NCBI GenBank assembly: GCA_951406725.2
Contig: OX597819.1
Coordinates: forward strand, 69,998,001 to 70,062,000
Source: Octopus vulgaris
Lineage: Eukaryota
Length of the DNA: 64,000 nucleotides
Reading direction: 5' to 3'
Notes under the pieces: model-generated
Seen by the model: only the letters and a program-made list of their open reading frames with translations
What the model was told of the DNA's origin: nothing
Databases searched by the model: none
Made by a program: the position numbers and the translations under genes
Part shown: one piece after another, positions 31,352-36,314 of the stretch
Layout: every line of letters begins with the position of its first letter
Numbering within the stretch: position 1 is the first letter of the stretch

Positions 31352-31681
31352 AATTACCATCATACAAATTGGAATACAGTGTTGTATATCTAGTAAAGGT
31401 GTTTTAACTTTAGTTCCAACCATTTGTTTTTTTTTTTAATAATCATCTTGAAATCATTATATTATAATTTGTGGAGATATCAATTTTAGATTTCAAGTTG
31501 GAGAGAAAAGTTTGACGTGAAAATCTCTCCAACATTTCAGTTTGTTTTTGTTTATTTTGCTTCCTTAGCGTCTTCGTTAATTTCGTTTCGTCTTGATTTT
31601 TTTTTTTTTTTGATTTCTACATCTGTCCTTCAACGGAAACATCATCAGGTCGGATAATATGAAGTGCCAATGTCGGTAACT
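31352..31681 (+). repeat. Inverted duplication, arm 1 (partner 35993-36314)
   Basis: Block 31430-31542 is identical to the reverse complement of 36124-36236, and block 31618-31681 matches at 63/64 to that of 35993-36056. Confidence 0.92.
31649..31675 (+). other. Candidate 27-nt symmetric microexon (phase 2: SDNMKCQC)
   Basis: T-rich tract ..catcatcAG|GTCGGATAATATGAAGTGCCAATGTCG|GTaact. Only one frame is open. No transcript evidence. Confidence 0.3.
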
Positions 31682-32013
31682 GTGACACTTCACCTCCATC
31701 CCCTTTCTCTACTCCTTCTCTCCTCTCTCTCTCTCTCTCTCTCTCTCTCTCTCTTATATATATATATATATATATATATATATATATATATATATATATA
31801 TATATATATATATATATATATATATACATACATATATATATATATATATATATATATATATATATATATATATATATATATATTTGTATGCGTGTGTGTG
31901 AGTGAATGTGTAGATATGTGTATATAAATGAATGTGTGTGTTTTAGTGAGCACATAGGGGATATAAACAGACAGATAAAGATATAAATATATGTAGATAT
32001 TCATGCGCATATA

Positions 32014-32593
32014 TCTATATATATAAAAGTGAGAATGTGTGTCTGTCTGTCTGTCTGTCTGTGTGAATCCCTAAAACTTGAGAACTACACAACCAATTTC
32101 ATTCAAATTTTACACATGCCTTACTTTGGGTCCATGTAGTGTCATGGGCATAAATTTGTTTTAACTTCTTGCCTAGGGCGAACCCCACAGCAATATTGTA
32201 TCTTCTCCTCTATTTCAGTATTACGTGTCAAAAGTGAAACAAAAACATTTCTCTATTGTAATGTCAAATGCTTTCACTTTAATAGTGAAACTATTATATA
32301 AGTGGCATGAACTGAAAGTGAACATCCCTCTTATATGTATGTAATATAATTTTTTCTGAAACTTCATACTTTTCAATATGCTACACCACTGGTTTTAAAT
32401 TGATATTATTCAAATTAATATTTAATTTTTCACCCTTATTATATTAAATTTAAATTTACATGTATTTACATGTAATTTACATGTAATTGTAAGCATTTAT
32501 GTATTAGCCTTTTGGGTATTTTACTGGCAGTGTATTGGATAAATGATATCCCATAGTGGGTTACAATCATAACCCCTATCTCACTTTATGCTA
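32014..32593 (+). mobile_element. Non-autonomous Helitron-like element
   Basis: A|TCTATATATATAAAA start, (GTCT)n, then caaccaatttcattcaaatttt; same 5' architecture as 50131-51290. The 3' boundary is uncertain. Confidence 0.65.
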
Positions 32594-32759
32594 TATATAT
32601 ATATATATATAGCACAAAGTGAGATAGGGGTTATGATTGTAATATATATCTAGCACAAAGTGAGATAGGGGTTATGATTGTAACCCACTATGGGATATCA
32701 TTTATCCAATATACTGCCAGTAAAATACCCAAAAGGCTAATACATAAATGCTTACAATT
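32485..32759. repeat. 109-bp-arm fold-back palindrome
   Basis: 32485-32593 versus 32651-32759 with 2 mismatches. The spacer holds (TA)n and an extra 33-bp partial arm copy (32610-32642). Confidence 0.92.
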
Positions 32760-33009
32760 GCAATGTAATTAGTTCATTTATTGTATTATATGGGCGAAGG
32801 TAAAATGTTTTACCTCAAATTCATAATACAAAATATGAAAATGGAGTAATAGATTCCTTTCAATCATCAACTTCCAGATAATACCAATTCATATAATTTA
32901 TTAACTAATTAATTGACTAGGAACATCCAAATCCAACAGATTAAGACAGAATAAAACAATATACATCAATAAGTAAGATAATACCATAAAAATAATACAT
33001 ATAAAATGG

Positions 33010-33168
33010 ATCTTACATCTGTTTCAGCCTGTAGATAAGGGTATCTCATTATGCTCATATTAGTCAGATGTATTGAGGTAATATGCAGTTAGAAATGAGT
33101 TACTTTATATATATATATATATATATATATATATATATATGTATATATATCAAGGCCTCGTCAGAGAT
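33010..33168 (-). ncRNA. Type-I hammerhead ribozyme motif with 122-nt loop II containing (TA)n
   Basis: ATCT-CTGACGA-GGCCT..[122 nt]..AGGCT-GAAAC-AGAT-GTA-AGAT: canonical core, and all three stems pair. Confidence 0.68.
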
Positions 33169-33329
33169 TATAAAGTACAATTATGAAGATATAAAATGAA
33201 GATATAAAATGCAAATATAAATATTAAACATTAAACAAAGTACACATATATAAGAATATATACAACTTGTCCGAGAGAGAACGTTTCCGATTACTTTTGG
33301 GTACCCCTCGTATGCGCAGAAATGAAATT

Positions 33330-33555
33330 GCCAAAATAATCCTTTCTACTAAAGGCACAAGGCCTGAAATTTGGCGGGTGGGGCCTATTCGATTACATCG
33401 ACCCCAGTGTTTTACTGGTACTTAAGTTATCGACCCCAAAAGGATGAAAGGCAAAATTGACCTCGGCGGCATTCGAACTCAGAACATAAAAACGGATGAA
33501 ATGCCGCTAAGCATTTTACCCGGCGAACTAACAGTTCCGCCACCTCACCGCCTTA
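33330..33555 (-). mobile_element. SINE family B, full length
   Basis: Reverse complement of ggcggtgaggtggcggaactgttag..gagttcgaatgcc..tttgcctttcatcc. Confidence 0.85.
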
Positions 33556-33809
33556 ATAATAAGGACAATGATACATATTACGCTAATGTCGGGTAACATT
33601 GCATGGGTGGATAAATATTCTTTATCTGTGGATTAACAAGGCTACCAGAAGTTTCATGTAGGGAGGAATCTCTCAATAATAATAAAGCCTGCTACATGGG
33701 AACGTTGGTTCTCGTCACCCTCATGGATAAGAATATTCGAAACTACATATATGAAAATACACGAAGCTGTACGTGTGTGTGTGTGTGTGTGTGTGTGTGT
33801 GTGTGTATG

Positions 33810-34105
33810 AGGACTCGTGGTTTAGTGGTTAGAGAGGCACTTATGACCTAGCGATCGTGATTTCAATTCCTAGACTGGGCGGTGCGTTGTGTTCTTGGGC
33901 AAAACATTTCATCTCACGTTGCTTTGCGATCACTTCGACAACTGACACGTGGTACACTGTGCACCTGTTCGGCTAACGTCGATTTTAGAGAGAGTGAGCT
34001 AATGTGCGGCCTCAATATTTGTTCGCTATAAACGAATCATTTGTGCAGGTCGTTCGGCAAAAAGCTGAACGCTCATACGCCGTCTCCGACAGGAGAGTTC
34101 ATCAT
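33810..34105 (+). mobile_element. SINE family C
   Basis: gtggtttagtggttaga..tttcaattcc..gcgttgtgttcttgggcaaaacatttcatctcacgttgc. Confidence 0.7.
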
Positions 34106-34546
34106 GTGTGTGTGTGTGTGTGTGTGCGTACCGTCTAAGAATCCATAAGTCAGGAAAAATGCATCGACTAATATATTAGTCGAAGTGTACGGAACTATAT
34201 ATCCATAAAGGCCAATCTTACCACTCGCACTAGAGGTTTCAACGGAGTGTTAGATAACAAGCCGATTATGTAACCCTACGCTCTTCAGAGACGGTAGTTG
34301 TGGAATGAAATATTGCGACTGCTCCCTATTGTTGGAGGTGAAGAGACACACCCTGTTTGTGGTTGTTGTGAAAAAAGACGTTGAAAGGAATCGATCACCT
34401 TCTTCTTGTATAGATCTCAATTGATGGAGTTGGGATATTCTTTGTTGAATATCCTGGGTCATATGGTTCCATTGTAACAGAGATATAGCATCCGTGTTGA
34501 GTCTTTGATGACAAAGTATAGCGCACCACCGGGAATTTTATATATA

Positions 34547-35050
34547 CAATAATCCCTCGACTTTCGTGTGTGTTAGTTCCAAACCCCCCCCCCCCCGAGA
34601 TAGGTGAAAACCCGCGAAGTAGAAACAGTACTCTACGGTATATTTATTATTATCATTATTATTATTATTATTATTATTATTATTTTATAATTTGTATATA
34701 TTTATTTTATTATAAATGCAAAACAGCACTACACACACGCCTCCCGAGTTTCGTTTCCCATACAGTATGTGTGATTCTTTGTTTACTCATCAGCGGCACA
34801 CTACGTATTTTGTTTTAATATATTTTAATTAATGTGTTATACAGTGCAGTACTGTACTTTATCTTTATTTATATATTTATTTTTAGGCGTGAAAATGCTT
34901 GTTTTACCACAAAAATAATAAAAATCTATCAAAATATAAATATTTATCGGCCGCAGAAACCCGCGATATAAATTTACATATATTAGCCAGAAAAATCCGC
35001 GATGTACTGATGGCGCTAAAGGTAAACCGCGATATGGCGAGTGATTTTTG
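34547..35050. mobile_element. Tc1/pogo-type MITE
   Basis: TA|caataatccctcgac ... ggcgagtgatttttg|TA imperfect TIRs with internal aaccgcga subrepeats. Confidence 0.6.
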
Positions 35051-35992
35051 TACATATAAAACTTCCACTACAGTTGTTTCAAGCTGAAGAATTTTTTCGA
35101 AGTAACTAAATTGTGGACTTCAAATAAATAGTCCAAAACGTTTATATTTGTTTTCTGTGTCGTGTTCTAACTTCAAAGATGTTTATATCGATTCGAACTC
35201 TTAACAAAAGAGACGCACGCTCAACCGCGCAAATGCACACATTTACGCAGGGGTTAAGCGCTTTGCAGGACTACAAACTTCGCTCTGTTTGTTATAAACT
35301 TGCCATAGCTGTCTACTTTTGGGTTCTTGTAATTCCAAATAGTTATTGTCTTCAAAAGTCTAACATGTGTGTGTTTATGTGTGTGTGTGCACACATAGAG
35401 ACATACATACATGTGCCTGTGTGTATGTATATATATGTGTGTGTGTGTGTGTGGAGGTGTATAGATTTACGTGTATATATATACACATACATACACATAT
35501 ATATATTAAGTGTAAGAAGAAATGGAGCTGAACGAAGATTTAACAAAATTCCTTTATATTATTTTCTACATATGTTTCGAAGGCTGCGAAGTCCCTAATT
35601 CGGATTGAATAAGGAGTCCATTTTGCAGCTTTTAAGATATAAAACTTCAAATTTCCGCACTAAGGCACGGTTTTTATGCCCCATGGTCGCAACTTCAACC
35701 GGGCTTTTTCTGTTGTGATTCTTGCTACCCAGGTATCGGTTATCATTTGAATTATCCGTAATAAGATAATTCATTTATCTACTTCAAATACACACACACA
35801 TATATATATATATATATATATATATATATATATCTGTATCTATCTATCTTTTTTAGGTATCTACTTCTTTATCAATGTCTGTATCTCTGTGTGTGTGGGG
35901 GGGGTGTTCGTATGTGTGGACAGAGAAACAGAAGGAGAGAAAGAGAGAGAGAGAAATAGAAAGAGGGATATTCAGAGAGAAAAAGGAGATGT

Positions 35993-36314
35993 AGTTACCG
36001 ACATTGGCACTTCATATTATCCGACCTGATGATGTTTCCGTTGAAGGACAAATGTAAAAACAAAAAAAATAAACAGAGAAGACGAAAGGAACCATGACAT
36101 TAAAAAAAAAAAGCCAACTTCTTAACTGAAATGTTGGAGAGATTTTCACGTCAAACTTTTCTCTCCAACTTGAAATCTAAAATTGATATCTCCACAAATT
36201 ATAATATAATGATTTCAAGATGATTATTAAAAAAAATGCAAATTGTTGGAACTAGTGTTAAATCACCTTCACTAAACATATAACATTGAATTCCAATTTA
36301 TGTTATGGGAATTC
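35993..36314 (-). repeat. Inverted duplication, arm 2 (partner 31352-31681)
   Basis: See arm 1. Confidence 0.92.

Follow-up and report, generated by a model that had tools for sequence, protein, structure and literature searches.

Why should two inverted copies of one short sequence remain identical, or nearly so, in two separate blocks when the sequence around these blocks has drifted apart? The question is raised by a pair of arms in a stretch of 64,000 nucleotides of the Octopus vulgaris genome (contig OX597819.1), which we call the window and from whose first letter all positions are counted. The pair is composed as follows:

31352..31753, plus strand: arm 1, a near full-length copy of a dispersed repeat of ~300 nt, with a CT-rich tail.
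31352..31429, plus strand: outer flank of arm 1, repeat-derived and 79% identical to arm 2.
31430..31542, plus strand: block 1 of arm 1, matching arm 2 at all 113 nt and containing the core motif of the repeat family.
31543..31612, plus strand: T-rich spacer of arm 1, 64% identical between arms, with extra sequence in both arms relative to the family.
31613..31681, plus strand: block 2 of arm 1, with a 58-nt perfect run and substitutions at 31617 and 31623; its first half matches the family model.
31754..35934: interior, in which no exon candidate was found; it contains microsatellites, a palindrome (32477-32768) and several insertions of multicopy repeats.
35935..36314, minus strand: arm 2, an inverted copy of arm 1 by arm alignment and family HMM.
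35993..36061, minus strand: block 2 of arm 2, the mirror of that in arm 1 by alignment.
36124..36236, minus strand: block 1 of arm 2, the mirror of that in arm 1 by alignment.

The arm alignment bears out the architecture given in the first-pass annotation. The invariant block put at about 110 nt is identical at 113 of 113 positions (31430-31542 against 36236-36124), and the 64-nt block with one difference corresponds to 31618-31681. At its full 69 nt, block 2 holds two substitutions, both C/T, at 31617 and 31623, and a perfect run of 58/58 (31624-31681 against 36050-35993). The spacer, described as poorly alignable, matches in 46 of 72 columns (64%; 31543-31612), and the outer flank, described as about 80% identical, does so at 61 of 77 positions (79%; 31352-31428); the CT-rich tails match at 49 of 72. 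The 4.3 kb said to separate the arms is 4,311 nt between inner block ends. The outer flank differs in identity from block 1 (Fisher p 1.6e-7) and from block 2 (p 9e-4), and block edges coincide with T-runs and with the CT tail or microsatellites. Among 2,740 repeat pairs from 584 kb (at least 200 nt long, identity at most 88%), this pair has the longest perfect run, 105 non-simple nt at an overall identity of 76.7%. The runner-up among the 61 close inverted pairs has a run of 54 nt, and only two of the 61, the arm pair included, reach 50 nt.

Two convergent genes with consecutive source accessions flank the pair, each turning its last coding exon towards it. One is a fatty-acid-binding-protein gene, whose stop at 19733 is 11.6 kb from the pair; the stop of the other gene is ~44.5 kb past arm 2. 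We found no annotated host gene or transcript for the arm pair. Other places in the DNA compared match 37% of the interior.

Where do the arms come from? They belong to an old, AT-rich, low-copy family of ~300 nt, with at least 24 dispersed loci besides the arms; this number is a lower bound. A core-motif search gave six matches and its reversed-pattern controls none. BLAST found 17 loci at 70-87% identity, one of them the query itself, and a later pattern search gave 16 matches, against none in controls, and seven new loci. An HMM built from 17 non-arm copies recovers both arms: its alignment to arm 1 runs between 31355 and about 31670 (E 8.5e-19), that to arm 2 between 36305 and about 35996 (E 1.1e-20). 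The copies are many, dispersed, evenly diverged (20-30% among themselves) and share common boundaries, as in an ancient dispersed repeat. The earlier concern that the blocks might simply be a dispersed multicopy repeat is thus partly right: such a repeat did give rise to both arms, block 1 and the first half of block 2 included, but in the genome the blocks occur, in near-identical form, just twice. The C22 match to block 2 resembles a variant of a common repeat motif; in shuffle tests against five copies of that motif, block 2 scored above shuffled sequence for two (5 and 2 of 300) and not for the other three. We treat the family as unclassified; among titles and abstracts in the literature, we found none on the locus or the family. 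Terminal inverted repeats of a DNA transposon were considered and rejected, since none of the 10 other copies examined has a second copy within 10 kb on either side. No convincing exon was found near the family copy on chromosome C12, and 200 kb around 10 other copies gave only five weak candidates in a scan of low sensitivity that missed some known exons.

The two arms are each other's closest kin. Their outer flanks are 0.79 identical, and the maximum among 136 family pairs is 0.73. Of 63 outer-flank columns compared with the family majority, 19 carry changes common to both arms, and 7 and 10 carry private ones. Since the arms are closer kin than other family pairs and have these 19 of 63 derived columns in common, and since other copies are single, the pair was likely born by local inverted duplication. 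In block 1, by comparison, 29 of 98 columns carry changes common to the arms and none carries a private one. The arms thus appear as an inverted duplicate of common local origin whose tracts are more identical than their age-matched background, and the suggestion of selection or gene conversion at the blocks stands: their identity demands active homogenisation or constraint. Which of the two? The divergence of block 1 from the family majority (29/98, inflated by an insertion; family mean 0.22, sd 0.07) does not tell stasis from conversion. Changes shared by the arms carry no GC bias (Fisher p 1.0 in all three segments, at few sites), so that signature of conversion is absent. The same window holds two sharp-edged inverted copies, one of 114 nt with one difference and one of 267 nt at 99% identity, which makes DNA copying plausible at this locus.

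Block 1 differs from the rest of the family in structure as well. Two hairpins have been gained:

31447..31497: hairpin 1, in which 31447-31455 pairs with 31489-31497 in a perfect stem of 9 bp; the family majority lacks it.
31497..31533: hairpin 2, a 10-bp perfect stem (31497-31506 with 31524-31533), whose 5' arm falls within 11 inserted nt that the family model lacks.

Both arms have two such stems, 2 of the 24 family copies have one, and 22 have none. On one strand, block 1 folds better than shuffled sequence (z -3.0 and -2.9; 2 of 200 shuffles each). The family as a whole gave no consensus RNA structure (0 pairs in 16 sequences, both strands), and the 80 Rfam matches with E up to 5 all lie outside the two blocks. 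A known structured RNA or miRNA precursor was rejected on these grounds and on stem length (9-11 bp). Six 15-letter motifs from the blocks are absent from four supplement files of an octopus miRNA paper, files that perhaps do not contain the precursors.

Does the sequence persist in other organisms? In five of them, the best runs contain 26-57% of 35 sampled exact 31-mers. Organism D has a word share of 0.34-0.40 in five runs from three studies; the blocks alone account for 111 of 335 words (0.33), and a uniform divergence of 3.5% predicts 11.6 of 35, likewise fitting these shares. In organism F, one contig covers 35971-36235 and differs there by 11 substitutions and 10 gap letters, the differences and the words present being available as counts rather than by site. 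Nine words are present in this organism: evenly spread differences would give a mean of 1.3-2.2 (P of nine or more at most 0.011) and invariant blocks 11.5, in a simulation that takes the contig as the only source of the nine words. Together, these word counts give a hint that the blocks are conserved between species. Two exact-pattern scans of metagenome contigs returned no orthologue. Arm 1 may be present in run X18, among records removed by filtering. None of the 20 runs with matching words is on record as RNA, and RNA labels are guesses. In the filtered records, X5 and X10 have zero depth on arm 2 and X8 has at most little depth over some of the interior, patterns that we discount as evidence.

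We tentatively favour arm-to-arm conversion bounded by T-runs, probably acting on a constrained non-coding element, an explanation to which we assign a little less than even probability. One repeat copy would have drifted ~30% from the family majority and acquired the two hairpins, which template switching would produce, and this copy would then have been duplicated in inverted orientation. Copying tracts, by gene conversion or template switching, would halt at T-runs of unequal length, so that the blocks between them remain identical and the outer flank and spacer drift. Purifying selection is likely to act on the blocks as well, as a non-coding DNA element in two copies; selection for a cis-regulatory role on a neighbouring gene is the least supported step. 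Besides the lack of GC bias, three observations weigh against this explanation: other close inverted pairs mostly lack such runs, with 2 of 61 reaching 50 nt; the tracts of 58-113 nt are far below the 2-kb mean given in the Y palindrome paper (PMC3723533); and the word share of organism D is also predicted by uniform divergence of 3.5%.

Must anything be selected at all? The pair could be a functionless relic, its two patches copied over from one arm to the other in a single recent event or many times. The dispersed-repeat origin of the arms, the recent inverted copies nearby, 114 and 267 nt long and sharp-edged, the lack of an annotated gene at the pair and of a consensus structure in the family, and the fit of uniform 3.5% divergence to organism D all suit such a relic, and it has a precedent in Y palindromes, where conversion alone is described as having cut between-species arm divergence (1.44% against 2.00%; PMC3723533). 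However, overwriting would have to reach both separate patches and yet leave the intervening spacer at 64%, in the most extreme of 2,740 pairs; moreover, both gained stems fall in one block, and the organism F simulation favours differences outside the blocks. We regard a neutral origin as unlikely, though as the likeliest of the rivals. Selection might instead act on RNA. If an unannotated or read-through transcript covered both arms, the blocks could pair across the 4.3-kb loop, with the pairing selected as an ADAR substrate or as a switch against the local hairpins. Selected pairing directly predicts identity in inverted orientation, and the predicted arm duplex is strong (-405 kcal/mol for the plus and -420 for the minus strand), but comparable energies are expected of any inverted duplicate. 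As had been pointed out, the differences at 31617 and 31623 would be G-U pairs in a minus-strand duplex; this strand bias does not extend further, for block 2 has two of two wobbles of minus type but the outer flank has five of plus and four of minus type. The better-than-shuffled fold of block 1 on one strand, the organism F contig over arm 2 from a run guessed to be RNA, and the report that octopus editing lies mostly in introns and 3' UTRs (PMC9699675) are consistent with a duplex. Against it, the pair has no annotated host transcript, the closest stops being those 11.6 kb and ~44.5 kb away; the human conserved complementary regions of PMC8052449 are catalogued within protein-coding genes; and molluscs are described as having no dedicated endo-siRNA pathway (PMC12479628), which makes a hairpin-RNA version less likely. 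A long-range duplex thus seems rather improbable. More doubtful still is its most specific form, in which the hairpin-gaining copy and its inverted twin became a conserved octopus RNA switch on an unannotated transcript, the hairpins competing with a 113+58-bp duplex that would be a dedicated ADAR substrate outside coding genes.

Finally, the blocks could be selected as coding or splicing units, namely as a duplicated 27-nt microexon, as paired first exons or as a small open reading frame. Two features bear on this:

31649..31675, plus strand: candidate 27-nt microexon, unsupported, with a weak acceptor and no host gene found.
36131-36223, plus strand of arm-2 block 1: 30-codon ATG-TGA frame with no credible protein relative.

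The pattern AG, 27 nt, GTAACT is present as first described, with one open frame (SDNMKCQC), and the T-rich tract reported upstream of it exists but ends ~37 nt short of the AG. The acceptor is weak: the 17 nt preceding the AG hold eight pyrimidines (four T), whereas all seven acceptors of the two genes on either side have 12-14 (9-13 T) there. Identity in block 2 stops exactly at +6 of the donor-like GTAACT in both arms, but the microsatellite tail starts there too; similarly, neither substitution changes an amino acid when the SDNMKCQC frame is read upstream, but the same holds for an antisense frame. Exon scans of the interior and the window found no partner exons. Of 295 joints, the 15 listed all lie inside a multicopy repeat. 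The proposal of a microexon controlled by an intronic duplex finds no support: the site lies between the stops of two convergent annotated genes and in no annotated coding-gene intron, though a gene outside the annotation may enclose it, and the organism F contig runs unspliced across the mirror exon. As for the 30-codon frame, it exceeds the longest in the 24 family copies (maximum 23), but silent differences are expected under coding selection and block 1 has none, and a search of 1.84 billion proteins gave its peptide a single match, repeat-summed and at 35% identity. Selection as an exon or small frame is therefore very improbable.

Arm-to-arm copying as such has precedents (PMC1803023, PMC3723533, PMC8604942), and on our preferred reading of T-run-bounded conversion the locus offers a small but clear example of an inverted duplicate evolving in concert. 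Like the maintained inverted repeats of Caenorhabditis (PMC1803023) and Y palindromes (PMC3723533), it is an old inverted duplication whose arms are far more alike than expected for its age. Unlike those described, it has no duplicated genes, arms of ~400 nt, a 4.3-kb spacer and identity in two patches, and there are hints that its sequence, beyond its symmetry, persists between species. The gained perfect stems of 9-10 bp, one via an insertion reverse-complementary to a nearby segment, resemble template-switch homogenisation as reported (PMC8604942), although the octopus case is non-coding, comes from a mollusc, sits inside a larger inverted pair and is known without intermediates. Long perfect complementarity at kilobase distance recalls conserved complementary regions and the editing-complementary sequences of ADAR (PMC8052449); here it stems from repeat duplication and is known from DNA sequence, with no annotated host pre-mRNA. 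Were the duplex reading true, the lineage in which editing is most extensive would have, in this pair, a defined long-range ADAR substrate. The family itself, an old, dispersed, unclassified short repeat at 20-30% divergence, is comparable to vertebrate UCON and Eulor elements (PMC5753468) and to low-copy coleoid repeats (PMC8967140), from which it differs in that one octopus copy has doubled as an inverted twin. UCON and Eulor are described as ancient low-frequency repeats overlapping conserved non-coding elements (PMC5753468), and the octopus family could supply such elements; in cephalopods, alignments of these elements are reported to be mostly dispersed over non-homologous chromosomes (PMC13652810).

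The arm pair is real and unusual. Alignment of arm 1 (~31336-31753) with the reverse complement of 35935-36329 confirmed the inverted pair, and the inverted duplication with two near-invariant blocks described in the first-pass annotation was borne out. Block 1 (31430-31542 in arm 1, 36124-36236 in arm 2) is identical at 113/113 positions, and block 2 (31613-31681 and 35993-36061) holds a 58-nt perfect run with substitutions at 31617 and 31623. Elsewhere arm-to-arm identity is 79% in the outer flank (~80% had been claimed), 64% in the T-rich spacer between the blocks, which had rightly been called poorly alike, and 68% in the CT-rich tail. 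The contrast between outer flank and blocks has p values of 1.6e-7 and 9e-4. A survey of 584 kb of this genome yielded 2,740 diverged repeat pairs, and the arm pair exceeds all the others in the length of its perfect non-simple run (105 nt, with an overall identity of 76.7%).

Are the blocks simply a dispersed repeat, the outcome that was to count against the duplex or microexon proposal? The arms do belong to a dispersed family, but DNA search found exactly two near-identical copies of each block. The lead to the family was a weak third match on contig C12. One motif search gave 6 matches and none in controls, BLAST with one dispersed copy as query gave 17 loci (query included), and a second motif search gave 16 matches, 7 of them new, again with none in controls. 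Besides the arms, the family has at least 24 loci.

Family loci in the genome
L049-L065, L072, L073, L075, L077, L078, L080, L081

The family is old, unclassified and AT-rich, with dispersed single copies of ~300 nt, and scans of 200 kb around ten copies found no convincing exons. An HMM built from 17 copies other than the arms spans 31355 to ~31670 (E 8.5e-19) and 36305 to ~35996 (E 1.1e-20), so the outer edges of the arms lie approximately at the start of the family model. No consensus RNA structure emerged on either strand (0 pairs, 16 sequences). Ten of ten other copies were single within 10 kb on each side; transposon ends therefore failed the pairing test and were rejected. A tRNA-like sequence (L048:1100-1130) lies ~370 nt from the C22 match to block 2.

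Outer-flank identity is 0.79 between the arms and at most 0.73 in any of 136 family pairs. Over 63 outer-flank columns, 19 derived changes are common to the arms and 7 and 10 are private; over 98 columns of block 1, 29 are common and none private. The pattern suggests that the arms arose by local duplication in inverted orientation and afterwards stayed identical only in patches. Block 1 has also gained two perfect stems, one of 9 bp and one of 10 bp; such stems are absent from 22 of 24 family copies, with one in each of the other two. One stem arm lies within an insertion of 11 nt whose sequence is reverse-complementary to a segment 17 nt from it, the expected product of template switching (PMC8604942). 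On one strand, minus in arm 1 and plus in arm 2, block 1 has a more stable fold than its shuffles (z about -3, 2/200 each), with no such excess on the opposite strand (z -1.0 and -1.6).

What keeps the patches identical? Arm-to-arm copying would be the simplest way, and Caenorhabditis inverted repeats (PMC1803023) and a Y palindrome (PMC3723533) offer precedents. The window itself holds recent, sharp-edged local inverted copies at 22236-22349/23203-23316 (114 nt, one difference, 0.85 kb apart) and 60653-60918/62084-62350 (267 nt, 99%, 1.2 kb apart), and the block edges coincide with T-runs of unequal length and with the microsatellite tail. Against copying count the short tracts and the other close inverted pairs that lack similar runs; the arms also show, over few sites, no GC bias as a sign of conversion. 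For these reasons a likely second step was added, in which purifying selection acts on the arms as a twin non-coding element. Copying combined with such selection is our leading, tentative account, held at somewhat under even chances, and neutral copying alone is unlikely. Slightly less probable still is an RNA duplex formed within some unannotated transcript. It would directly predict inverted identity, but the analysis demonstrated neither a host transcript nor editing nor a wobble bias, and in PMC12479628 molluscs showed no dedicated siRNA pathway.

An exon or small ORF as the selected unit is very improbable. A 27-nt segment with a single open frame (31649-31675) does exist, as proposed for a microexon, but its candidate acceptor is weak (17 nt with 8 pyrimidines, whereas 7/7 local acceptors have 12-14) and it has no annotated host gene. 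A 360-nt contig from organism F runs through 35971-36235, across the mirror exon, without a skip. Arm identity stops at +6 of the donor-like site, a position that also marks the beginning of the CT tail. The two substitutions of block 2 are silent whether read in one of the sense frames or in one of the antisense frames, and so carry little information. The 30-codon block 1 frame had no credible relatives. An 11-bp local stem at 31657-31693, in arm 1 only, covers the donor-like site, with complete pairing on the minus strand.

The arm pair behaves as a concerted inverted duplicate would, and it is similar to the ancient low-frequency repeats, overlapping conserved elements, of PMC5753468 and PMC8967140. 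On the host-gene test it does not qualify as a microexon. For an editing duplex, the comparison was with the conserved complementary regions of PMC8052449. Among the titles and abstracts listed by literature searches, none concerned this locus, and six block motifs were absent from the four supplement files of an octopus miRNA paper, which may omit precursor sequences.

Part of arm 1 was found in 20 runs from 12 studies and six organisms (A-F). For a sample of 35 exact 31-mers, the highest share present was 0.83 in A, 0.57 in B, 0.54 in C, 0.40 in D and E, and 0.26 in F. The blocks account for 111 of 335 words (0.33), near the 0.34-0.40 of organism D (5 runs, 3 studies), a share that uniform 3.5% divergence would equally give. 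Reads were compared with the interior and arm 2 in 4 of the 24 runs listed; DNA run X8 covers arm 2 at a mean word depth of 8-32 in three bins, to which other family copies may add. Over 265 nt, the F contig differs from arm 2 at 11 substituted positions and has 10 gap letters. If it alone supplies the 9 words present, evenly spread differences have P ≤0.011, and its differences would lie outside the blocks. These sequences therefore suggest that the blocks may be constrained between organisms, although the placing of the differences is conditional and the word shares also fit uniform divergence.

Genes flanking the arm pair
3332-3445 and 19668-19730, plus strand: fatty-acid-binding-protein gene exons in the window; stop 19731-19733, AATAAA shortly downstream
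Window 3332-3445, 19668-19733; L012:863-934; L013:8426-8599: the four coding exons of that gene (protein P0002, PF00061)
L015-L022, minus strand: gene for the 1,447-aa protein P0001; stop near L015:6857, ~44.5 kb beyond arm 2

The last intron of the fatty-acid-binding-protein gene is 16 kb. P0001 is low-complexity, and proline-tryptophan-basic motifs recur towards its end; it has no Pfam match and presumably resembles KIAA1671/TNKS1BP1-like proteins. The flanking proteins, named in the source as Octopus vulgaris proteins, have consecutive accessions (CAI9724352/3 and CAI9724354), so the annotation should place no coding gene in the interval, although a transcript that is unannotated or encloses the pair may exist. 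The interior is made up of microsatellites, a palindrome and inserted repeats; 37% of it is multicopy within the DNA compared, and exon scans, which are insensitive, gave no candidates there. The palindrome (~290 nt, 32477-32768, inside the loop) contains a 41-nt tandem duplication and is single in the DNA compared. Two GC-richer frames at 52509-53757 (minus strand; 144 and 198 aa, no Pfam match) are possibly retroelement ORF1 remains, and long frames at 4858-7116 and 39535-42065 (both minus) resemble non-LTR retroelement reverse transcriptases by eye. A 5S rRNA-like match at 37514-37617 (plus strand; 48 bits against an Rfam gathering score of 38) adjoins a repeat at 37624-38195 that has several copies in the window.
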